A stretch of DNA of 64,000 nucleotides from the sequence record PX068455.1, one strand, 5' to 3'. Origin of the DNA: a phage. The position numbers and the translations under genes were made by a program. Within the stretch, counting starts at the first letter, position 1, and the number at the start of each line of letters is the position of its first letter. The notes beneath the pieces were generated by a model. That model was not told where the DNA came from. It was given only the letters and a program-made list of their open reading frames with translations, and did not search any database. Below are positions 16,701-52,062 of the stretch, one piece after another.

Positions 16701-19375
16701 GGGTAACCTGTAGTTTGGTTAAACCACAAATTACAAGAGTAATCCCTCATATAGTCATAATCAGAGTATTTGTTTACATCTTCGTTCCAACACATGTTTA
16801 GGTTGGTACCGCCCATGCATACAATATATTCTGCGACATACTTATCACTTCTGGTAGGAATACCTATGAACCATCTGTTAACAGGCTCATCCCAAGCTGT
16901 GCGCTCATCTTTAACGCAGATAGCAATCCAGTCATGTGTTCCTGTTTTCTTGCACACATCTCGCTTCATACCATAGTAGAACTCTTTAGTATTCGGCTCA
17001 GGTGCATTTATCAGGTAACTCCATGCCTGATTTGCATAAGTTCCATTGGTGCGTGGATCATGATCAAAGGCATACATGATGATCCTTTCCCCACCAAGAT
17101 GTTCGCCAAGAGTAACTTTGACATTCACATCGCCGTAACCATTGCGAACAACATCCATATTGTCAATAGAGATGCCTCTGGGAGTGTAGGCAATCTTCAG
17201 CGAGTTATCCTCACTAGTGCCACCAAGTGTAATCCCTATGTTGTTTGTTGTCCCGTCGGCATATCTTACTGTGGCTTCCCAGCGTATTCCGAAATATCCT
17301 GCATCATGGCTAACAATTTTCAGTGTACGAGCACCAGAGTTAGGTTTTCCAGGATCAGGCCAAGGATTTGGATGTTCATGGACAGTCAACGATGTCCCGT
17401 TTTGCTCGTTGACCTGCAACATTTTACCGCCTCTGCCGTTAGGGTTGAACTCCCACAAGGCTTGTGTTTTCACAATATTGTCATACGTGGTACGTCTCTG
17501 ATCGTAGATCTCCTGAGTCACATCGTAGGTTACAGACCCGGCATCCATTCTATGGAGTCGTACTATATACGATGTATCGCCTTCTACAGCAGGTTGAGCT
17601 GCGTTAAGCCCGAAGTATACAGTATCGTTGACATGGAACTGTTTGTTTCTACCGACAGTATGCCACTTGCCGTTGGACGGGTACGCTGGGACGATAGTGT
17701 TCCAGTTCAAAGTCCTTGTTGTGTGGGTTCTGCCTGTGCCATGTTTGTCATGATAGGTTATTTTTACAGAGTACAGTCCACGTCTGTTAACATTTCTGTT
17801 ATATTGGGTAACAACAACTTCGTTGGCCCCGCCGTGGTTCCAGTTGGTGGAGAATTGGTAATTTGCATCTGTAACAACCGTGCCTGCAGCATTTACCAGT
17901 TCAATCTTGTCAATAATGAACGTAGCCCCCTCTGGCTGAGGCTTCAATTTCATCTTGACCGTGTCACCAATGTAAATATTGCTAACGCTGCTAACACCGT
18001 TAACTTCGAAAATATCATCAACACCCCAACTGTCTACTGGGACATTTTTATACCAATTCTCAGGAACCTCTGTGAACCCCTGGCTATTAAGTCTGCCGCC
18101 AAACAGGTTGTTAGATCCTGCAAAACTTCCCCTTGGGATGCCTGACCACCAAAGTTTACCATTAACAACAGTAAAGGTTCCTAAGAAACCTTCTCTGTGG
18201 ATGCCTTGGAAATAAACACTCTCTGTCCAGCTAACTGGCAGGCGTTGCTCAACATATTTAGCTGTAGCAAGAGCTTGATAGTGGATAAAATTAGCCCTAG
18301 GGCTATTGTTTGCAGATTGTGCACCAATATCATTACACAAGTTGCGAGAGAATCCACGATACTGTTTAGTGCCATTATTGAAGAAAATGCCACTTGTGCC
18401 ATATCCACGAGCCATTATCACCTCATGGGTGTAGGTGATATTTAAGGAACGCCATGTGTCATCTCCCCAGACGTCTTGCCCGTAGAATACGTTAACAAGC
18501 TGCTGGTCATTGGGTTTGTGCATCCTCTGTGTGGCAATTATTGCCCCGTTAGGGCCACACATAAACCCTTTCCACTCCTCATCTGCAGGAATGCCCCTCA
18601 AATCGTTACGAGTAATCTGCACAGGGGGCCAAACAAGGTCGTTTCTACTGTTATTTCTCAGAAAGTCGTATCCAGCAATCCAGAAACCCCTAGGACCACC
18701 GAAAATAACAGAATTGTCATGCACCTCGCAGTTGATGCTTGGGTTTTTCCAAGGTCCTGTTTCAGGATTTTCCGATGTCTCACCAATCTTCACAGGGGTT
18801 GCATGCTGATTTTTATCTACATGTAAAGATCCGTAGGTGTTGTTACCAGATCCATACAGGTTAAGTATGCCAGTACCTTCTGCCTCTGCAATAACCCAGA
18901 CAGTGTTGTTAATACCGCCCATCACCTCAATAAGGCGTTCTGGGTGGGTGTCAAGGTGCAATCCTTTAACAATCTGCTCTGGGAGTGGTGTCCACTCGTT
19001 TACGCAAACATCATTACCGCCTGCAGCAGTGGATCCGATAAGACCTGCAGTGCAGCCGATGTAGAAAAACTGGTTATCAAAAGTCCGGATCACAAACGCG
19101 CGGTCTGCTCTCCACACATGATCAACATTCCAGGCTGTTTCGCTCGGATAGTTTATAGGGCTACGATCCCCAGTGCGGCACTCTCCGAACTTGTTATAGC
19201 CGGTAATATTAAGCTGACCATCATCAAAAAGTATAGCTAAGCTATTTACATAGGATACTGTGTTGCTTGTACCATCACTGTTGTCTATTGGGTATGACAG
19301 AACAGCAAGTTCCTTAATTCCACCCCTCTTATCGAGGAAATGACGACCAAGTTTTAGCAAAGGGATTGGAAGCAT
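13739..19375 (-). CDS. giant virion protein (1878 aa), probable tail fibre/tailspike with Ig-like domain
   Basis: Uninterrupted 5.6-kb ORF; Gly/Asn-rich beta-type repeats; Big_2-like Ig segment NVSGIRKTWESSNTNIATVDATTGLVTFKATGNVTIKF near the C-terminus; sits in the tail-fibre cluster. Confidence 0.55.
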   Translation of the reverse strand: MLPIPLLKLGRHFLDKRGGIKELAVLSYPIDNSDGTSNTVSYVNSLAILFDDGQLNITGYNKFGECRTGDRSPINYPSETAWNVDHVWRADRAFVIRTFDNQFFYIGCTAGLIGSTAAGGNDVCVNEWTPLPEQIVKGLHLDTHPERLIEVMGGINNTVWVIAEAEGTGILNLYGSGNNTYGSLHVDKNQHATPVKIGETSENPETGPWKNPSINCEVHDNSVIFGGPRGFWIAGYDFLRNNSRNDLVWPPVQITRNDLRGIPADEEWKGFMCGPNGAIIATQRMHKPNDQQLVNVFYGQDVWGDDTWRSLNITYTHEVIMARGYGTSGIFFNNGTKQYRGFSRNLCNDIGAQSANNSPRANFIHYQALATAKYVEQRLPVSWTESVYFQGIHREGFLGTFTVVNGKLWWSGIPRGSFAGSNNLFGGRLNSQGFTEVPENWYKNVPVDSWGVDDIFEVNGVSSVSNIYIGDTVKMKLKPQPEGATFIIDKIELVNAAGTVVTDANYQFSTNWNHGGANEVVVTQYNRNVNRRGLYSVKITYHDKHGTGRTHTTRTLNWNTIVPAYPSNGKWHTVGRNKQFHVNDTVYFGLNAAQPAVEGDTSYIVRLHRMDAGSVTYDVTQEIYDQRRTTYDNIVKTQALWEFNPNGRGGKMLQVNEQNGTSLTVHEHPNPWPDPGKPNSGARTLKIVSHDAGYFGIRWEATVRYADGTTNNIGITLGGTSEDNSLKIAYTPRGISIDNMDVVRNGYGDVNVKVTLGEHLGGERIIMYAFDHDPRTNGTYANQAWSYLINAPEPNTKEFYYGMKRDVCKKTGTHDWIAICVKDERTAWDEPVNRWFIGIPTRSDKYVAEYIVCMGGTNLNMCWNEDVNKYSDYDYMRDYSCNLWFNQTTGYPPRQARVNPAIFTDTQVFLTKQANEVQTFKNKYDPNKWFYNCYGAFFWGPGELPGGGSCLNEATYASDYIMGQVKKYKIIPGPETLGNAVDPYIIMTALRSNMDGTSMSMQIPVTNGYKRVVMIIKCDLIGKQVLAENGTSTHPFEVALHYQFADSPFAGDKRISDTDAQRCKKVLLGAGWWWYEFDLTDKFTDTSRVVTGLRLDLGENMHKAVCDGTYGDPTIYLKYISFEHPEDVVYGPKLRLFGSWIAKDRVGMGKKVRGFLVDAGTEDMLVNAVWPELPGTQWNNSAKSINWFNIHRAMWTTNCYLWRELNDQAFGFSNGRRMAIICWTTLQRCYDHDYEIGGRAWKNIRDRIITNFADDNGGGAHNFGTSRLIHLNGSSAYKKEGYSGSMIEWGLVKDARVLMGQQLAAAIGPSAVQSVKPAWFDIPIWSSGTPGTAAINPTTGDLEISWEDLKQVGGWDKTGYQVQWWRADGSLAADEFVKDNFYTMSSAKAQQLFGQATPSTITMSMCCKDNRTGALGPRVAKVFSGIKWNLPVQSVSWKQIGDNKLLVTPACQFNATLNVDPAVAANSAKASDFSVSNTAMADVRKIDTLNARITCKNTYGTFQIINNFTDADSKVVRTASQTLSLGTLAYAALITEQSATLQGGGVGKSITTPVWKPNEWVVFDLTVDFSSDNNWTWVRNCLSQLMGGPSSVSDSHDSTDPSVFQVGKTHPETGETLPDRKYALVCISYGKADVTFSGTHTYNGTYNFSRKYSLKAGNIIDEVGALYNPGNGIGIVGGKLQMQEPSITPSNVSGIRKTWESSNTNIATVDATTGLVTFKATGNVTIKFVVTDDAGRKTSSTSFTVKQMAPQWRMWIGTATNGAYPNPAGTSGMKTFSTSKPMEYGSGPKVGQMVYFGAYIPEIIGLPRSQLQLLFGAGVDDLATFGYSDNIEAARSSGWVGFRMESGREGRILGTASIGVMFPGDQQYRLEAYATFSR

Positions 19376-19383
19376 TGTGTTCT

Positions 19384-19416
19384 CCAGATAAGAAAACCGC
19401 CCCGTCAGGAGCGGTT
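19384..19416 (-). terminator. hairpin AACCGC...GCGGUU plus U-rich tract
   Basis: 6-bp stem, 10-nt loop, UUUUCUUAUCU downstream on the minus transcript. Confidence 0.4.
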
Positions 19417-19423
19417 AGATATA

Positions 19424-21169
19424 TTAACGTTGTGCAATTACTACGTCTACGATATCACCAACACCACAATACGTTAATTGCAGCAAGGTAACACTGTTAG
19501 CCTTGTTGTTAATAACAGGTGTTGCCGACAGGATAGCATACTTATCGTGCAAAGTCACGTTGTGACCTACAGCATCCTGAATTACATAGATAACCGCAGT
19601 GAATGGATAAGGTTTATCTTCCGCTGATGTCCCAGGCCACTGTCCTATTGTAAAATCCCCTTTCGCGTGAACAACATACATACTGGCCTGCCCGTTAGGT
19701 GTCCATGTCCCACTGGACGCGTCAACCTCCTCTAAATCAAAATCTACCTTTCCTGCGTGGAAAGTAGGGGCAGTAATGGTTTTACCCGCCTCAATTTCTT
19801 GAGAGGTGGTTATCTTGCCACTGGAGTTAATGCCATTACAGACAAAGTTGACATTAGAGAAGTCAGGCAACCACCCAGTCACCGTGCCGGATATTTCAAG
19901 GTTGTGAACAGAGGTGGTGCCAGTCCCTGCTGCGTTTAAACTGACATCTCCATTTACCTGCAAGTTGCGGGTAACGTTGCAGTTTTCAGAGTTTGCAGTT
20001 GTTGCAGTTAAAGTGGTTGTTGTCAGCTCGGTAATTACACCTTTGTTGGCTGTAAGCCCTTCTCCTTCAAAAGTTGCACGCTCATTGACTCTTAAGGTAT
20101 TCAGAGCTATGTTTTGGATAGAGGCCGTACCTCGAATAACTACAGACCCGCCAATCTCCAAATCGCCATTTATCAATGCATCACCAGTGCTTTCAATATA
20201 GCTAGGATAGATCATGGTGCCATCGACAGAGTATGTTATCCCTGTAACGGTACCTGTCACCTCAAGGTTCTTAACCCTGGTGGTCCCATCGACCTGCAAT
20301 GTCGGTTCGGTTGCTGCCTTCATGGCATTACCACGAATGTACACGTAGTCAAAAAAGTTATTACCCAGACCATCAAAATGCACATCGTTATTATTAGCCA
20401 CTGGTTTCCCAGAAGTTATAGTGTCAGCTATAACCCTGTGGGTGGACACTTCATGAGGTTGCAGCTCTGTACTTCTCCAGTCTGCATGCTTAGGATCGCT
20501 CCACGCAAAAGTAAGTGTAGAAGTATTTGCCGTGAGGATTAGATTCCTAAAGCGTGCAGTAGAATCTGCCCCATTAACAGGTCCATGTAAGGTAAGGGTG
20601 CCACCAACTATAGTGTTAGCGAGTTCTGTAAGACCTTTTACCACCAAAGATCCTACAGTAACTTTCATCCCCTCCATGGCTTTAAATATGCTATCAACAT
20701 AGTCAACAACAAACTCTGTGTTTGCTATGGACTCTGACTTATCGTCCATTGGAGGTGTAGGTACTCGCGGGTCACCTTCGAACCTTGGGCTGTTAAGTTT
20801 TGCGTAGTATTTTGCCATTACTGCAGAGTCGGTGTATAATCTCCAGTTTGGAGATTGTGAAGGATCTGCTGGCATTCTAACCGGGTTAGATTTTGATGCT
20901 GCTGGGGCGTACCACCACTGAGTGCCTGTATCCCCTTTAAACTCATACAACTGGTTAAAAACTGTTGTGGATGCACCATACGCCCAAGGGATTGGTGGCG
21001 TTTTAAAATAAAGGGTGTCAAGCATGGCTTTTCGTACCGTAGGGATAGTGGTCCCATCCTCTACGACAACTTCATCCACAGCGTTACCGTTGACAATCAA
21101 GTGCAAACGTTCAGAATCAACAATTACTTGATCTACCGCCTGCTCGAAGCTTGTCATGTCTTGCGCCAT
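19424..21169 (-). CDS. tail fibre protein
   Basis: 581 aa; N-terminal MAQDMTSFEQAVDQVIVDSERLHLIVNG resembles conserved baseplate-attachment domains of phage tail fibres; Thr/Gly/Asn-rich beta-type body. Confidence 0.55.
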   Translation of the reverse strand: MAQDMTSFEQAVDQVIVDSERLHLIVNGNAVDEVVVEDGTTIPTVRKAMLDTLYFKTPPIPWAYGASTTVFNQLYEFKGDTGTQWWYAPAASKSNPVRMPADPSQSPNWRLYTDSAVMAKYYAKLNSPRFEGDPRVPTPPMDDKSESIANTEFVVDYVDSIFKAMEGMKVTVGSLVVKGLTELANTIVGGTLTLHGPVNGADSTARFRNLILTANTSTLTFAWSDPKHADWRSTELQPHEVSTHRVIADTITSGKPVANNNDVHFDGLGNNFFDYVYIRGNAMKAATEPTLQVDGTTRVKNLEVTGTVTGITYSVDGTMIYPSYIESTGDALINGDLEIGGSVVIRGTASIQNIALNTLRVNERATFEGEGLTANKGVITELTTTTLTATTANSENCNVTRNLQVNGDVSLNAAGTGTTSVHNLEISGTVTGWLPDFSNVNFVCNGINSSGKITTSQEIEAGKTITAPTFHAGKVDFDLEEVDASSGTWTPNGQASMYVVHAKGDFTIGQWPGTSAEDKPYPFTAVIYVIQDAVGHNVTLHDKYAILSATPVINNKANSVTLLQLTYCGVGDIVDVVIAQR

Positions 21170-21178
21170 GATTTCTCC

Positions 21179-21445
21179 TTAAGCTTTTTGCTCTTCGTTT
21201 TTAACGTGGTCAGGGTGCTGGCAACCCCACCGGAGCGAGATGAATTTGCTAATAAGCTGGGGGCAGGCTACTGAAGGTGCATATATCCACGCATACCATT
21301 CAGGAAGCGTATCATTATACCCCATATGAATAAACACCCCAGTCATCACCGCCATGCCTATGTTCGACCATAGCTTAGATTGGGATACTTTCGTAGGGTC
21401 ATCAGATGCCGCAACCAGTCCCCATAAAAACTGAGTTAGTTTCAT
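21179..21445 (-). CDS. small membrane protein (holin-like, 2 predicted TM segments)
   Basis: 88 aa; hydrophobic stretches LWSNIGMAVMTGVFIHMG and WYAWIYAPSVACPQLI, charged C-terminus. Confidence 0.4.
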   Translation of the reverse strand: MKLTQFLWGLVAASDDPTKVSQSKLWSNIGMAVMTGVFIHMGYNDTLPEWYAWIYAPSVACPQLISKFISLRWGCQHPDHVKNEEQKA

Positions 21446-21456
21446 TTACCCTCTTT

Positions 21457-22503
21457 TTAAGCATAAGATATAGTGATCCATTGACCGTTTACAAGTTTTT
21501 GGATAGCACCTGTCCAGTAATCACCTTGATAAGGGTGTTTATAAGCGTAGTTACCAGAGCACATCACATGTCCAGGGTAGACTCTTGACTCTCTGTAGGT
21601 GGTTTTGAAACGGTTTGCTATCCTTACATCGTCAACCCCTCTACTGGGCATAGGGACAGTAAGGTTACCACTACCGTCTGCGCTGTTACCGTTTACCCTG
21701 CGGACCACGTTTCTTCCACCAACGGTTGCATATTGGCCTCTAACGGTTTCATCGTTACAATCAACTCTTCCACCTATTTGAGCGCTTCCGCAGGATTGTT
21801 GTCCGTTAACAGTGGCTCTTGGTATCGTGACCGCATTGGCATTTGCAGAGGAACTTTTTGCATCGTTGCATTCAAGATTTCCTTGGATAGCCAGTCTTGC
21901 ACGGTTGGCAGTTATAGCATTGAGCTTCATAGCCGAAAACACAGGCTGCCCACCAGAAGGTTGAAATCTCCAACGGAACCCGTCTATTTGGTGAGAAGGA
22001 TCATCAAGGTCTGTGCCGTCAGCACCACCGATGTTGTCCATAATCCAGAAATCCATCGTCGTCTTGTCTGGCGTTATGGTGGTATATATTGCCGCACTGT
22101 CTGTTGACGCAGATGCAAACTCGATTCTTTGGAGACCTAAAGTTTGAGTCTGAGTCATTATGTCTCCAGACTTGTCAACATATAGATCGTCCATTTCTTC
22201 AGGTGAGTATACATTGAGAACTTGACGTGCAGCAGCTTTGTCTGGAACGTCTGCTAGATTATTAGTGACCCTTAAGAATCTATTATCCCATCCTGGGACA
22301 ACATCTTCTGTTAAATGCTTCAACCACGCAGAAAGCATGTGAAGTTCAAAGTTAACAACTTCACATGCCATTCTTTGTGTCATATCCCAACCTTTCAATC
22401 TCTCTTCTTTTTTTGGTTGAGACTTATTCAACTCTCCCGTATTTTCAAGCACAACATCCTGATTGGCCCAAATATCAAGAGGGATAACTGGTTTAGTCAT
22501 CAC
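21457..22503 (-). CDS. tail fibre protein (paralog B)
   Basis: 348 aa; conserved ends shared with 23515..24555 (N-term PLDIWANQD..KGWD, C-term QKLVNGQWITISYA); divergent centre. Confidence 0.6.
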   Translation of the reverse strand: MMTKPVIPLDIWANQDVVLENTGELNKSQPKKEERLKGWDMTQRMACEVVNFELHMLSAWLKHLTEDVVPGWDNRFLRVTNNLADVPDKAAARQVLNVYSPEEMDDLYVDKSGDIMTQTQTLGLQRIEFASASTDSAAIYTTITPDKTTMDFWIMDNIGGADGTDLDDPSHQIDGFRWRFQPSGGQPVFSAMKLNAITANRARLAIQGNLECNDAKSSSANANAVTIPRATVNGQQSCGSAQIGGRVDCNDETVRGQYATVGGRNVVRRVNGNSADGSGNLTVPMPSRGVDDVRIANRFKTTYRESRVYPGHVMCSGNYAYKHPYQGDYWTGAIQKLVNGQWITISYA

Positions 22504-22544
22504 GTTCTCCTGAGAAAATTCCTTAGGACTATTTTAACACTTTA

Positions 22545-22580
22545 GAGAACAAAATGCAAGAACGGAGTCCTTTCCGTTCT
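22545..22580 (-). terminator. hairpin AGAACGGA...UCCGUUCU plus U-rich tract
   Basis: Perfect 8-bp inverted repeat 22559-22566 and 22573-22580, just after the stop of 22590..22904. Confidence 0.45.
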
Positions 22581-22589
22581 GACCTTTGT

Positions 22590-22904
22590 TTACCTTTTAC
22601 TATGCTCTACGAGCATGTGCAAAATCTTTTGTACATCAGCTCGGATGCCGGAGACATCTGTCCTGACATCCTGCTTAAGGTCGTTAATATCGGCCTCTAG
22701 CTTGCTTAACCGGGTCTCGATAACGGAATCAAGTCTATCTTTTGTAACCATACTGTTTTTCACTAAGATGAGGTCTTTCTCCAGTTCATCCAACCTCTGG
22801 GAAATGCCTTTCCATTTGGTGTGCCACTGGTTGAAAGCCCATACACAGATCGGGACAACGGTACCCATACAGATACCGTACAATGCCGCCAAATCCAACT
22901 CCAC
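22590..22904 (-). CDS. membrane-anchored coiled-coil protein
   Basis: 104 aa; N-terminal hydrophobic segment LAALYGICMGTVVPICVWAF then heptad-like charged helix. Confidence 0.35.
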   Translation of the reverse strand: MELDLAALYGICMGTVVPICVWAFNQWHTKWKGISQRLDELEKDLILVKNSMVTKDRLDSVIETRLSKLEADINDLKQDVRTDVSGIRADVQKILHMLVEHSKR

Positions 22905-22915
22905 AACACCTCCTC

Positions 22916-23500
22916 TTAGAGGGTAGGTCGCTCCGGGAAGAAAATGTCAGGGGCTTTAGATGTATCTATTTCAAGAAGTTTTACCCTGTACATTTTCAAA
23001 TCTCTGATGTTACGTTTCTGGTCATCAGTAAGATCATATTCAAGGTCAATCATGTCTTGATAGGCACCAATTCTAGCAGTAGCCCAAGCAAGTTCTGTCT
23101 CTATGACACCCTCTGCCTGTTGAACAAAGAATTCATTGTCTGTGACAAATTCATCACCAACTAAACGCAAAGCGTCGTGGTGAAGCATAATGTTTTCTGG
23201 TACCTCTTCTTTTTTGGCGATAACCACACGAAGACCTGGAGCAGGCCATAAGGCATCAGGTTCTTCTGTAGATGTCTTAAGAATTCCCTTCTCGTCAACA
23301 AGTAGGAAGATACAACCTGGATTTTCTTGTCGCAATGTTCGTGACTGCACATACCAATCGCCATCATCATTACGTAAAAAATACCCAGTGTATGCGGTGT
23401 AATCCTCAACCTCTTGAGGGGTCAGCTCCTTGGTTTCCTTGTTGGCGTGGTATTCGCCAGATCCCGGTTGGTAAAGTTTAAACTCTTGAAGTATTTTCAT
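22916..23500 (-). CDS. tail fibre assembly protein (Tfa-like chaperone)
   Basis: 194 aa directly downstream of a fibre gene; C-terminal YRVKLLEIDTSKAPDIFFPERP resembles the Tfa signature. Confidence 0.5.
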   Translation of the reverse strand: MKILQEFKLYQPGSGEYHANKETKELTPQEVEDYTAYTGYFLRNDDGDWYVQSRTLRQENPGCIFLLVDEKGILKTSTEEPDALWPAPGLRVVIAKKEEVPENIMLHHDALRLVGDEFVTDNEFFVQQAEGVIETELAWATARIGAYQDMIDLEYDLTDDQKRNIRDLKMYRVKLLEIDTSKAPDIFFPERPTL

Positions 23501-23514
23501 GCTAGTCCTCCGAT

Positions 23515-24555
23515 CTATGCATAATTAACAGTGATCCATTGACCGTTTACAAGTTTTTGTAAAGGTCCTGCCCAGTAAGTTGAACCACGCATCTCTTTTT
23601 TGTCACCGAAATGCCAGCCTGTGACAACGTAGCCGTTGCGGATTGGAGATTCAGAAACGCCGTCCACAAGTCTTGCACCGATTCTGATGTCTTGCACACC
23701 TGTCTGCGGGATAGTGATCGTTACATCACCGTTACCGTTAGCCGTCACTCCGTTCACAGAGCGAACCACATTTCTGTTACCGACAACACAGTGCTGGCTT
23801 CTTACAACCATACTGTCACAACTTGCACCACCATTAACATATACTGACCCAGCCGTCAATTGACTAGCCACATTGCAGTTGGTGAATGTTGCTGTATTAC
23901 TGATAGTAAGGTTATTACACCTCATGTTATCGACAACTTCAACATTGCCTACCACTTTCAACAGCGCACGGTTAGCCGTGATCGCGTTAAGGTACATCAA
24001 AGTGAACTCTGGATTAATATCCGGCTGAGTTGGCTGGAATCTCCAACGAAACGCATCTACTGTAGATGTACCGCCATCATCAAACGACCCGGTATTATCA
24101 CTTAACCCAAAGTCGAGAGTTGTCTTATCTGGGCCAATAGTCGTCTCTATCCAAGCCTTATCTGTCTCGGCAGCTTTAAAGTTGATACGTTGCAAACCCA
24201 AGGGGCCTGTCATTGTATCACCTGTAACTTTTACATACCTGGCGTCTGCCTCTTCCTTGGTAATAATCCCAAGGTTTCTACGGGCAACAGGGATGTTCAA
24301 AAGATCACTCAAGTTATTATCACGTACCAGATAACGGCCTTCTTGAGCGGGGATCTGCTCGTCAGCAATATATTTTGCCCAAGTTCCGAGCATATTGAAA
24401 ATATAGTTAAGTTCTTCACATGAGGGCTTTTGACCAAGATCCCAACCTTTTCTCCACAAATCATCAATCGGGCGTAGCCTGTTCTGTCTGTGGGTGTTAG
24501 GCAGAACCTGATCCTCCTCTGCCCAAATCTCTAATGGAAAACTAGGTTTTGACAT
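23515..24555 (-). CDS. tail fibre protein (paralog A)
   Basis: 346 aa; GDTMTGPLGL collar-like motif; paralog of 21457..22503. Confidence 0.6.
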   Translation of the reverse strand: MSKPSFPLEIWAEEDQVLPNTHRQNRLRPIDDLWRKGWDLGQKPSCEELNYIFNMLGTWAKYIADEQIPAQEGRYLVRDNNLSDLLNIPVARRNLGIITKEEADARYVKVTGDTMTGPLGLQRINFKAAETDKAWIETTIGPDKTTLDFGLSDNTGSFDDGGTSTVDAFRWRFQPTQPDINPEFTLMYLNAITANRALLKVVGNVEVVDNMRCNNLTISNTATFTNCNVASQLTAGSVYVNGGASCDSMVVRSQHCVVGNRNVVRSVNGVTANGNGDVTITIPQTGVQDIRIGARLVDGVSESPIRNGYVVTGWHFGDKKEMRGSTYWAGPLQKLVNGQWITVNYA

Positions 24556-24567
24556 TTTATCTCCTGA

Positions 24568-26640
24568 TTATGAGAAGTCTGGCGGGACAACATCTTCTAC
24601 ATACCCTTTCAGAGCAACCTGCCCCATATGAAGCACGGTAGAATCTCTAGCGGTAACAGTGATGCTGTCAGACATTACTTGCGGGTATGCCCACACATAC
24701 TGTTTTACCTCAGGGTATCTATACTCTATAGTTGCCATGTTTCCGCAAATACATCTCCATAAAAATTCTTGGTAATTCCTAGTTGGGTCATAGCCATATA
24801 CCGGAGCAAGCTCTTTACTAGGAACGAACCCTGCAAGGTATTGTATTTCAGACGGTTGCCAACCTAACCTAACGATAGGTATGTTTACAGACTCTTTTGC
24901 CTTTTCAATACCTCCCTGCATCACCCAATCGTAGCACTCGGTGCAGAAGAAATCAAGAGCACCTGCTTCCTTTTTATATTGGTCAGCAAGGTTCAGCTTT
25001 TGTGTAAGCTCGGTTTCCATAATGGTTGGGAAAAACAGCAAAGCTGTCATCTGAGCTGATGCAGCGTGTGCCTTTACTGCCTTTGAAATAGCCGCAATAC
25101 GAGCGCCAAGCTTACCACGACAAAATGCCACATACTTGTCGTAAACACCGCCAGTTTTAGGATCGTCAATAGTCCCAATATCTAATGCATACTCACCTGT
25201 CTCATCATAAAACGCCTGCTTTGTAGGGTAATCATAAATACAAGGCCTACGAGTATCGGTATTGTACCACCACCACGGTTCACCAACCTGCATAATCACT
25301 GGCAGGTTGTTTCTCATAGCGGCTGATGCAAAATTCTTAAATACTGCAGTAAGGAAATTCATACCCTCTTCAATGGTTGGAGATAGGAGGTAGCTACAAG
25401 GTGTATACCCTGTTTTAGCGTAGTTATCGTTCCAGTCTCTTTGGGTCCATTCCAACGGGCAGGCATCGCTGAAAAGCTCAAAACTTACAGATTGCATAAC
25501 GTCGAAGTTATGTCGTTTGGCATTGTACATAAAATCATCATGCCATTTATAAGCTGCAGCGTTTAGCGCTCCTGTTCTGTTTATAGACCATTGGGTTCCG
25601 GACCATGTGTAGTCATAATAATGACTCATACCAACATAATGGTTTATGGTTCCGGTATATCCCAGACGCTTGATATTGTTCAACACCCTTAAAGGAGAGA
25701 CGTTCCACATATCGTCATATGCGGTGCAGATCCCAACGTCGTGCTCTCTCACCTGAATATTATTAAGTTGCATCATTTTCCAGCCTGTGTCTGGCTGAAG
25801 CAAATCTAGGCGCAACTCACACTCTACATTTTCCGTTCTCGGGTCTGTGCTATTACTTACCCAGTCTTTAGGCATGAGTGGTATTAAAATCCTTCTCACC
25901 TGCCGAGGATCAACACCCATCATGTTGTTGTTCTGGTCCATCCCGACGCAGTCCTCGAAATCAATATGAATTTCTGCAACATTCTTATCCTCTGAGATGC
26001 TGACAGCATATTGAGCTAAAGGAACATAGATGATTGTGCCATCAACAAGGTCTACAGTCATAATCATCTTTTCAGGAGTGGAGAAGTTGCTGGCGTTGGT
26101 TATTGACATTCTGAACCAAAGTTTGGTGTTTCTCATCTCATAGTGATCATCAAACCCAATACCGAAATGGTCATACTTGTCAACTGTTTCCCAAATGCAT
26201 CCAGCCATACCCCCATATGTTCTTGACACTAAACGGTTAATACAACAGTTGTTATCTGCAACAATACAGGTACTTTCAGTCTGCTGAGTAGTTGTAACCC
26301 AATATCTTGGGTGGAACATTCTCTCCTCGACAGTATCCCAAGATATCCTGTCAAGATTCTCATCTGAAACTATTGTACATTTCGCCCTTTGTGTCCCGAT
26401 CATCACCCCTTGAGATTTTGATGAAAACTCCATAAAGAAGCTTCTTGGCAACCTGTTGGGTAATTTGTCAACAATTTCCACCGGAATCTCAATACTGGTT
26501 GCCCCGACTGGGATAGTTACATCGCCCTCAACATGATCATAATCCCTACCAGGAACGGCAGTATCCTGAACTGTGCGGTAATGAAACTGCGCAGCCATTG
26601 TAGAGTAATCACGGTAAGGTTTAAAAACAGCTGTTGCCAT
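24568..26640 (-). CDS. virion structural protein, tail-fibre associated (function unknown)
   Basis: 690-aa ORF in the fibre cluster; no confident domain. Confidence 0.4.
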   Translation of the reverse strand: MATAVFKPYRDYSTMAAQFHYRTVQDTAVPGRDYDHVEGDVTIPVGATSIEIPVEIVDKLPNRLPRSFFMEFSSKSQGVMIGTQRAKCTIVSDENLDRISWDTVEERMFHPRYWVTTTQQTESTCIVADNNCCINRLVSRTYGGMAGCIWETVDKYDHFGIGFDDHYEMRNTKLWFRMSITNASNFSTPEKMIMTVDLVDGTIIYVPLAQYAVSISEDKNVAEIHIDFEDCVGMDQNNNMMGVDPRQVRRILIPLMPKDWVSNSTDPRTENVECELRLDLLQPDTGWKMMQLNNIQVREHDVGICTAYDDMWNVSPLRVLNNIKRLGYTGTINHYVGMSHYYDYTWSGTQWSINRTGALNAAAYKWHDDFMYNAKRHNFDVMQSVSFELFSDACPLEWTQRDWNDNYAKTGYTPCSYLLSPTIEEGMNFLTAVFKNFASAAMRNNLPVIMQVGEPWWWYNTDTRRPCIYDYPTKQAFYDETGEYALDIGTIDDPKTGGVYDKYVAFCRGKLGARIAAISKAVKAHAASAQMTALLFFPTIMETELTQKLNLADQYKKEAGALDFFCTECYDWVMQGGIEKAKESVNIPIVRLGWQPSEIQYLAGFVPSKELAPVYGYDPTRNYQEFLWRCICGNMATIEYRYPEVKQYVWAYPQVMSDSITVTARDSTVLHMGQVALKGYVEDVVPPDFS

Positions 26641-28828: not shown

Positions 28829-28861
28829 GTCACTCCTCCGGTATGAAAATCTCTACAAGGT

Positions 28862-28890
28862 ATTTTACCAAATTTTGTAACAATAGTCAA
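28862..28890 (-). promoter_or_regulatory. sigma70-like promoter (TTGACT-17-TAAAAT)
   Basis: -35 at 28885-28890, -10 at 28862-28867 (minus sense); just downstream of terminator 28901-28924. Confidence 0.5.
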
Positions 28891-34341: not shown

Positions 34342-34372
34342 TGTGCCTCCAGGTTAAACAATCATGATAGTT

Positions 34373-34401
34373 ATTTTACCAGATTTTGAGTTAATACGCA
34401 A
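34373..34401 (-). promoter_or_regulatory. sigma70-like promoter (TTGCGT-17-TAAAAT)
   Basis: -10 at 34373-34378, -35 at 34396-34401 (minus sense); shares the AAAAT(C/T)TGGTAAAATA core with the 28862 promoter. Confidence 0.45.
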
Positions 34402-48469: not shown

Positions 48470-48512
48470 TTTATAGCATCCTTATTAGTCATGTTGTGCA
48501 CCATATTTGTGT

Positions 48513-48541
48513 ATTTTACCATGATTACGGTGCATTGTCAA
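48513..48541 (-). promoter_or_regulatory. sigma70-like promoter (TTGACA-17-TAAAAT)
   Basis: Consensus -35 at 48536-48541 and -10 at 48513-48518 (minus sense), after terminator 48583-48613. Confidence 0.55.
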
Positions 48542-52015: not shown

Positions 52016-52033
52016 TATATTCCTCACTAATGT

Positions 52034-52062
52034 ATTTTACCACAAAGATACATCAAAAGCAA
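52034..52062 (-). promoter_or_regulatory. sigma70-like promoter (TTGCTT-17-TAAAAT)
   Basis: -10 at 52034-52039, -35 at 52057-52062 (minus sense). Confidence 0.4.

Follow-up and report, generated by a model that had tools for sequence, protein, structure and literature searches.

The short tail fibres of the Vequintavirus phages are a described two-gene system. In rV5, the fibre proteins gp30 and gp33 are 42.3% identical, resemble T4 gp12 by HHpred and have been proposed to recognise two lipopolysaccharide (LPS) chemotypes (Kropinski et al. 2013, PMC3606486). The same set was described by Maffei et al. (2021) as two paralogous short fibres plus a chaperone, homologous to GpS and GpU of phage Mu and with almost no allelic variation, and the same study found a single short fibre in phi92-like phages and Phapecoctavirus. 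In phiTE, residues 3–92 of the homologous fibre have been modelled on baseplate wedge 1, where they form the joint that binds the wedge (PMC11972413). Here, we describe the corresponding locus at positions 21,179 to 24,555 of a 64,000-nucleotide stretch of phage DNA (record PX068455.1; hereafter the window), which encodes two short tail fibres, a tail fibre assembly chaperone (Tfa) and two small proteins, and carries a 30-bp repeat near the 3′ ends of both fibre genes. The original prediction for this locus had seen in the repeat a means of swapping or deleting a fibre cassette by homologous recombination. In the reading that we consider very probable, the locus is the Vequintavirus short-fibre module, its gp30 gene being an extra fibre copy in a slot that related genera fill with a membrane protein gene, here called MID, and the repeat being the trace of an exchange between the two fibre genes.

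The closest counterparts are rV5 genes 29–33 and the same regions of LL12, BASEL phages Bas51–58 and other Vequintavirus, which have the same genes in the same order at 98–100% nucleotide identity and show no substantive difference from the locus, the exact repeat length varying among isolates. The likeness to phiTE (9cuy/9mjn; Certrevirus, Vequintavirinae) extends over the N-terminal ~100 fibre residues and over the neighbourhood of fibre, Tfa, gp31-like, gp29-like and large fibre genes, but the only such fibre of phiTE is 554 aa long, has a coiled-coil and Ig-rich distal part and is thought to bind flagella, and phiTE carries MID where the present phage has its second fibre. The S/U pair of phage Mu (5yvq) is more distant: the gp33 tip resembles the C-terminus of S, gp32 resembles full-length U and there are two alternative fibre specificities, whereas the N-terminal and shaft parts of gp33 are unrelated to S by sequence. 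Unlike the Mu G segment, the locus has no inverted repeats and no invertase, and its fibre genes lie in direct orientation, both apparently expressed from late promoters. Mu has two chaperones, U and U′, against one for two fibres here, and the chaperone system of T4 gp12 is gp57A, unlike the Tfa/GpU type of this locus. Likeness to T4 gp12 otherwise consists in the HHpred similarity reported for rV5 and a shared proposed role in binding the LPS core; no sequence-level match of T4 gp12 to gp30 or gp33 was obtained in searches of the PDB.

Earlier publications already cover the paralogy of the fibres, their chaperone, the late promoter P030 and the transmembrane domain of gp31; the locus is ordinary and already known, a fixed feature of a well-studied genus that is used in phage therapy and food safety. 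What is added here is modest: the placement of the second fibre in the MID slot and an exchange of fibre tips in a sister clade.

Identity and layout of the locus

Positions 21000–25000 of the window are 100% identical to Escherichia phages ECP2303 and ECP2309 and 98–99% identical to about 110 other rV5-type phages; 117 records match, 113 of which cover at least 80% of this query. The genes on the minus strand correspond one-to-one with rV5 genes 27–37 in the annotations of JohannBauhin and rV5_ev147, and the rV5 gene table agrees. These matches identify the source phage as a Vequintavirus, an rV5-like E. coli myophage, and positions 21179–24555 as rV5 genes 33 to 29, a short-tail-fibre module of two fibres, a chaperone and two small conserved proteins. 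All of the predicted open reading frames (ORFs) are present on the minus strand (23515–24555, 22916–23500, 22590–22904, 21457–22503 and 21179–21445). Their arrangement had been described as small membrane protein genes and a chaperone gene lying between the fibres, which holds for the chaperone and the 104-aa protein but not for the 88-aa ORF at 21179–21445, located downstream of the second fibre. In the order of transcription, the genes are as follows.

23515..24555, minus strand: short tail fibre 1, rV5 gp33 ortholog, 346 aa (phrog_4465 tail fibre, 1.8e-171)
22916..23500, minus strand: tail fibre assembly chaperone, rV5 gp32, 194 aa, Mu GpU type (PF02413 and phrog_136)
22590..22904, minus strand: rV5 gp31 homolog, 104 aa, GTG start, N-terminal transmembrane helix followed by a helical hairpin (phrog_5345, 'unknown function', 1.8e-48)
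21457..22500, minus strand: short tail fibre 2, rV5 gp30 ortholog, 347 aa from ATG 22500 (phrog_4465, 2.7e-166)
21179..21445, minus strand: rV5 gp29 homolog, 88 aa, two weakly hydrophobic segments and a charged C-terminal tail (phrog_1322 'membrane protein', 2.7e-32)

The start of the second fibre is likely ATG 22500 rather than GTG 22503, because an AGGAG motif lies 6 nt upstream of the former and relatives annotate a protein of 347 aa.

Domain organisation of the fibres and their chaperone

Both gp33 and gp30 cover the phrog_4465 profile from end to end (positions 1–342 of 342) and are 43% identical to each other over their full length (E=1e-95). The two had been thought to share conserved termini around a divergent centre; their alignment is instead a mosaic, with conserved blocks at residues ~1–20, 101–214, 251–270 and 331–346 and divergent blocks at residues ~61–100, 215–250 and 291–330, and residues 119–214, in the centre, rank among the best conserved parts. 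Domains at the two ends could be recognised from searches of PDB profiles and from the alignment.

24232..24555, minus strand: fibre 1 N-terminal baseplate-attachment domain, aa 1–108 (match to phiTE 9cuy_c)
23515..23700, minus strand: fibre 1 tip module, aa 286–346, Mu GpS C-terminal type (match to 5yvq_A)
21457..21642, minus strand: fibre 2 tip module, aa 287–347, divergent, ~45% identical to the fibre 1 tip except in the last strand (alignment)

At the N-terminus, residues 1–108 of gp33 match residues 1–111 of the phiTE short tail fibre 9cuy_c (1.4e-19) and residues 1–83 of gp30 match the same chain (1.9e-8). At the C-terminus, residues 286–343 of gp33 match residues 440–501 of the Mu tail fibre protein S (5yvq_A, 1.7e-6), and the tip of gp30 is assigned to the same type because of its paralogy, its ~45% tip identity to gp33 and the terminal strand that the two share.

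The claim of a Tfa-like chaperone is borne out by a PF02413 Caudo_TAP match of 8.4e-12 (45.8 bits, gathering cut-off 22.1) and by phrog_136 (2.1e-36). The Tfa family profile in turn aligns over its full length (1–175 to 1–174) with Mu 5yvq_B, 'Tail fiber assembly protein U', at 8.9e-27. A search with the chaperone gave 247 places in 245 records, with one place in each of the 12 matches listed, all of them 100% identical and Vequintavirus-type, and no second Tfa copy was found in the window. The gp33 gene is directly followed by the Tfa gene gp32; gp30 is followed instead by gp29, which is not Tfa-like. As there is a single Tfa gene and the two fibres share the terminal strand QKLVNGQWIT, gp32 most likely serves gp33 and gp30 alike.

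In the proposed mechanism, the first ~100 residues of gp33 and gp30 would anchor each fibre to the baseplate wedge, and the last ~60 residues of both would form a receptor-binding tip of the Mu GpS type, both tips being folded by gp32, the one GpU-type chaperone, whose gene directly follows that of the first fibre. By analogy with the published receptor genetics of the rV5 group, the LPS core is most likely the target of both fibres during irreversible adsorption, and having two tips would let the phage recognise a wider range of core types.

Several observations weigh against this picture. The gp30 tip had no direct match to Mu S in the PDB search. That both fibres are part of the virion is a presumption: the rV5 paper names gp30, gp32 and gp33 in its text as detected by mass spectrometry (MS) of the virion, its gene table has no 'MS evidence' tag for them, and the peptides that were searched for are absent from the rV5 MS file. 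The service of gp32 to both tips is likewise an indirect deduction, and the distance between gp30 and gp33 makes import of gp30 from an unsampled relative conceivable, as set out below.

Exchange of fibre tips and the 30-bp repeat

An uncultured sister clade of Vequintavirus, represented by metagenome assemblies and IMG/VR sequences (L015, L019–L022, L026–L029), keeps the two-fibre order. Its gp33 is ~75% identical to that of the window in protein and ~69% in DNA, and its Tfa is ~45% identical and 199–205 aa long. Within this clade (L015, L019–L022), the bodies of the two paralogues, residues 1–285, are 0.43–0.45 identical, as in the window, and the tips, from residue 286 onward, are 0.80–0.84 identical against 0.45–0.48 in the window (Fisher p ~6e-9), the gp30 tip of the sister clade being of gp33 type. 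Because these tips are closer to each other (0.84) than gp33 tips are across the two clades (0.64), the exchange followed the split of the clades, and because synonymous sites in them are saturated, with ~30% of codons the same, it is nonetheless old. The tip module alone is also common to the fibres of Phapecoctavirus and of ~52-kb Salmonella and E. coli myophages, at 57–61% identity, and the gp30 tip of the window lineage is about equally distant from all other tips (0.35–0.47).

These comparisons mark the tip, from about residue 286 and bounded by the blocks RNVVRxVNG...GNG and QKLVNGQWIT, as the exchangeable unit, and indicate that the 3′ tip region has been exchanged between the two fibre genes in evolution, so that a weaker form of the cassette idea holds. 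For host-range engineering of rV5-type phages, the tip from about residue 286 is accordingly the unit that the two fibre genes, and also different phage groups, have exchanged, and a designed tip may have to retain the terminal strand if one chaperone serves both fibres.

The 30-bp repeat lies at the 3′ boundary of this unit.

23530..23559, minus strand: 30-bp repeat, fibre 1 copy, codons Q333–T342
21472..21501, minus strand: 30-bp repeat, fibre 2 copy, codons Q334–T343

As predicted, the exact 30-mer AGTGATCCATTGACCGTTTACAAGTTTTTG occurs only twice, near the 3′ ends of both fibre genes, and none of 100 shuffles gave such a match; the similarity around it reaches 63 nt at 84%. On the coding strand it reads CAA AAA CTT GTA AAC GGT CAA TGG ATC ACT, encoding QKLVNGQWIT five codons before each fibre stop. 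From the late-gene codon usage of this phage, the probability of identical codons for ten identical residues is ~1.3e-4, so the nucleotide identity of the 30-mer exceeds what amino-acid conservation accounts for. Across gp33 and gp30, the same codon is used at 54 of 143 identical degenerate residues, and at 10 of 11 within the last 16 residues.

The two copies are identical over 30 nt here and in JohannBauhin. In rV5_ev147 (L002) they differ at one of the 30 positions, leaving exact runs of 14 and 15 nt; there are two differences in L009, four in L010, five in L017 and L018, and eight in L015 of the sister clade. All of these are synonymous except one in L010, which alters a residue (L to F in gp30). 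The longest exact match between the fibre genes of L017 is 20 nt and located elsewhere, and that of L010 is 14 nt, and other genera encode the QKLVNGQWIT motif with different codons. The exact 30-mer thus appears as a lineage-specific feature, confined to part of the genus, and is best read as the 3′ anchor of the tip module carrying a fading trace of short-tract conversion. In mechanistic terms, its nucleotide identity would be the decaying remnant of a short-tract exchange rather than a working site of recombination.

Origin of the second fibre and the MID slot

In a tblastn search with gp33, every record listed at 95% identity or more had two places and all other genera had one, and gp30 was found in 117 records. 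The gp33 protein is 47.9% identical to the single fibre of Av-05 and is, by position, the ortholog of the single short fibre of other Vequintavirinae genera, which marks it as the ancestral copy. The best relative of gp30 is gp33 (43%), followed by the fibres of other genera (36–40%), and its distribution marks it as an extra copy limited to Vequintavirus and the uncultured sister clade.

In six annotated relatives from Seunavirus, Certrevirus, Avunavirus and Mydovirus, the gene order is fibre, Tfa, gp31-like, MID, gp29-like and gp28-like fibre, where MID is our name for the phrog_7451 protein, of 152–157 aa with 4–5 transmembrane helices. A suggestion that MID is GtrA-like was dropped, as a Pfam search gave no hits. 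MID is present in 107 phage records, none of them Vequintavirus-type in the summary tables or among the 40 matches listed, and gp31-like proteins are present in 224 phage records, the sum of the 117 with gp30 and the 107 with MID. Among 33 IMG/VR loci collected with the gp29 family as seed, eight had a second fibre, 22 had MID, three were Phapecoctavirus-like and none had both. As the second fibre and MID never occur together in these data, the second fibre occupies the MID slot between gp31 and gp29; no MID remnant was found elsewhere in the window. The presumed replacement of a dispensable membrane protein gene by a fibre gene marks this slot as tolerant of insertion.

Duplication in place is favoured over import as the origin of gp30, with MID presumably the gene that was replaced. 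An alternative, which we regard as possible although unlikely, is that gp30 was brought in as a moron-like unit of hairpin, late promoter and gene from an unsampled Vequintavirinae-like phage, displacing MID, and that its 3′ end was later converted from gp33. The hairpin and late-promoter motif that precede gp30 fit such a unit, as do the small difference between its identity to gp33 and to the fibres of other genera and the remoteness of its tip in the window lineage from all others. However, gp33 is still the best match of gp30 in the phage collection, no donor lineage was found among GenBank phages or in IMG/VR, and the conserved blocks are spread along the full length of the two proteins, as expected of an old duplicate.

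The small proteins gp31 and gp29

Two small proteins flank the second fibre. For gp31, the prediction of a transmembrane helix plus a coiled coil agrees with a Kyte–Doolittle value of 1.91 at residues 5–23 (19-residue window, usual transmembrane threshold 1.6) and with an AlphaFold2 model of pLDDT 87 that has helices at 5–50 and 55–103. The rV5 gene table, based on TMHMM and Phobius, lists one transmembrane domain for gp31 and none for gp29. The gp31 gene is kept directly after the Tfa gene across Vequintavirinae. Family searches with gp31 gave nothing beyond coiled-coil noise, and a fold search of its model against viral structures gave no match at E<0.5, helical hairpins being uninformative in such a search. 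Two more specific identities were considered and rejected. Mu releasin gp25 resembles gp31 in being ~100 aa long with an N-terminal transmembrane helix and a coiled coil, but the two show no detectable homology (hhalign probability ~1%, no member matching DUF2730) and have different genomic contexts. An i-spanin role was set aside, as the overlapping 48-aa ORF at 22763–22909 has no lipobox, the next gene is a fibre and spanins are assigned elsewhere: the spanin pair of the rV5 group lies next to the terminase gene, as LL12 gp65/gp66 (PMC6658697) and also in CB7, rV5 and PVP-SE1.

The gp29 family is more widespread, with gp29-like proteins in 369 phage records, including Phapecoctavirus, and 19 invariant columns across 16 sequences from several genera; a pattern scan of bacterial genomes found no relatives. 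The description of the 88-aa protein as holin-like with two transmembrane segments could not be upheld: its Kyte–Doolittle peaks are 1.05 and 1.0, below the threshold, the rV5 table gives it no transmembrane domain, it matches no holin family in Pfam, PHROGs or NCBIfam and its gene is far from the endolysin (gp89 in rV5). The Phapecoctavirus homolog peaks at 1.65, and the AlphaFold2 model of gp29 (pLDDT 58) is too poor for a fold search. A degenerate Tfa for the second fibre, suggested by the position of the gene, was rejected at a profile–profile probability of 0.15%. The name 'DUF2644', which one source gives to a homolog, was also rejected: a Pfam hmmscan of 16 members finds nothing, and the family has no literature mention. 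In the sister clade, most gp29 homologs have a C-terminal extension of 25–40 residues rich in Tyr, Asp, Ser and Arg.

We regard both proteins as late, probably membrane-associated and non-structural; they may act in lysis timing or in fibre assembly. In phage W70, the short fibre (W70_112) and the gp28-like fibre (W70_107) are separated by four genes, which are missing from the part of the virion MS table that was examined; from gene numbering and synteny, they would be the counterparts of gp29, MID, gp31 and Tfa.

One doubtful but discussable proposal is that gp31, gp29 and, elsewhere, MID form a late inner-membrane lysis-control set, of holin, antiholin or releasin type, lodged in the fibre operon in the way that gene t, which encodes the T4 holin, comes after gene 38. 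The rV5-type phages have no positively identified holin (PMC6658697), gp29 combines a conserved core of two hydrophobic segments with a variable charged C-terminal tail, and the releasin-like architecture of gp31, a weak match of the Phapecoctavirus gp31-like protein to an Rz-like spanin PHROG (1.2e-3) and the W70 virion data all point the same way. The proposal has to contend with the lack of any match to holin, antiholin or releasin families, the ~1% hhalign probability against Mu gp25, the low hydrophobicity of gp29 and its missing transmembrane domain in the rV5 table, and a spanin pair and an endolysin placed elsewhere in the genome. Moreover, the genes stay closely linked to those for fibre and baseplate in two subfamilies, which fits a fibre-related role at least as well.

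A broader and equally tentative idea extends the short-fibre reading itself. Both fibres would have to fit one GpU-type chaperone, with repeated 3′ conversion keeping their tips compatible and the 30-mer and the sister-clade tips as snapshots of this process, and gp31, MID and gp29 would make up a conserved inner-membrane module that serves the assembly of short fibres or the timing of lysis and that has, in this lineage, lost its middle gene to the second fibre.

Two further observations come from Phapecoctavirus. In Ro121c4YLVW (L004, 5696–6243), the gp29-like gene is not beside the short fibre and lies between a 102-aa protein resembling a tail-spike N-terminus and a baseplate wedge gene. 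The gp31-like protein after Tfa is annotated there as a 'lipoprotein', yet shows a hydrophobic helix at its N-terminus and lacks an obvious lipobox.

Structural stability of the locus

The idea of a repeat-driven cassette swap or deletion finds no support in the available genomes, with no structural variant in 117 GenBank records or in 16 metagenome-derived two-fibre loci. In the former, gp30 is at least 90% identical, and each record sampled has two or more fibre places; the latter comprise eight public assemblies (L015, L017–L022, with L016 a fragment) and eight IMG/VR loci, all 16 of which, sister clade included, have the same gene order. Four GenBank records had low coverage; in PDX it is explained by the locus spanning the ends of the record, an explanation made for at least this one of the four.

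That the 30-bp repeats are working recombination sites, with populations carrying deleted, duplicated or swapped fibre cassettes and a host range varying accordingly, is therefore very unlikely. Homologous recombination in E. coli and its phages can act on stretches of exact identity down to roughly 30 bp, the identity of the 30-mer is greater than codon usage predicts and the tips of the two genes did exchange sequence over evolutionary time. Against this, no variants occur in the records and loci, and the exact repeat is missing in close relatives. As the repeats are direct, recombination between them could delete or duplicate only, not swap, and a deletion would take out gp31, nearly all of gp30 and gp32, the sole Tfa gene. 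The synonymous drift of the repeat and the use of other codons in other genera also argue against a maintained recombination-site role. An invertible cassette of the Mu G or P1 C type was looked for and no fitting inverted repeats flank the genes, only scattered short ones with 71–94% matches being present; family scans found no recombinase among the ORFs of the locus.

Selection on nucleic acid, for instance on an RNA or DNA element with a regulatory or structural function at both 3′ ends, is scarcely credible as the cause of the 30-mer identity: chance codon identity is improbable and each copy is closely followed by another gene, but the 1–8 differences in relatives, free drift at synonymous sites with the protein kept and the different codons of other genera rule out selection on the DNA itself, and a promoter and terminator scan gives no call on the coding strand of the repeat.

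Expression signals and neighbouring features

The sole sizeable gap in the locus precedes the second fibre gene.

22504..22589, minus strand: 86-nt spacer with a hairpin at 22559–22580, then TTGCATTTTG, then the late-promoter-like TGTTAAAATA (22530–22539)

The spacer folds at −23.4 kcal/mol (z = −2.07) and is kept in both two-fibre clades, the sequence of its stem varying. The element TGTTAAAATA equals the published putative late promoter P030 of rV5, and the motif TGKTAAAATA has five copies in the window against 0.49 expected. The other four of these five are exact copies of TGGTAAAATA, an rV5 late-promoter-like sequence, on the minus strand (28861–28870, 34372–34381, 48512–48521 and 52033–52042), and appear to correspond to rV5 P036, P040, P051 and P056. 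In a sigma-70 promoter scan, sites were no more numerous than in shuffles, and the coding strand of the repeat had none. At 19395–19416 on the minus strand, a strong terminator-like hairpin, AACCGCTCCTGACGGGGCGGTT, with a T run follows the 581-aa fibre gene and matches the published rV5 terminator t028.

A 403-aa ORF on the plus strand (16934–18145), antisense within the 1878-aa fibre gene, is most likely a chance ORF. Among the GenBank records, 16–21 under MG0656xx are labelled Campylobacter jejuni phages (C2, A142, C9, D1 and others) and are 98–100% identical to E. coli rV5-type phages across the locus; their host labels look doubtful, with contamination or propagation on E. coli as possible causes. 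Upstream of the first fibre, the minus-strand gene at 24568–26640 encodes a 690-aa rV5 gp34 homolog with the Pfam domains NCTSP_N, TIM-barrel_NCTSP (1.1e-80) and Calx-beta, NCTSP standing for non-contractile tail sheath protein, and published work ties this homolog to the N4 gp65-like protein that binds the ECA/NGR glycan as its receptor.

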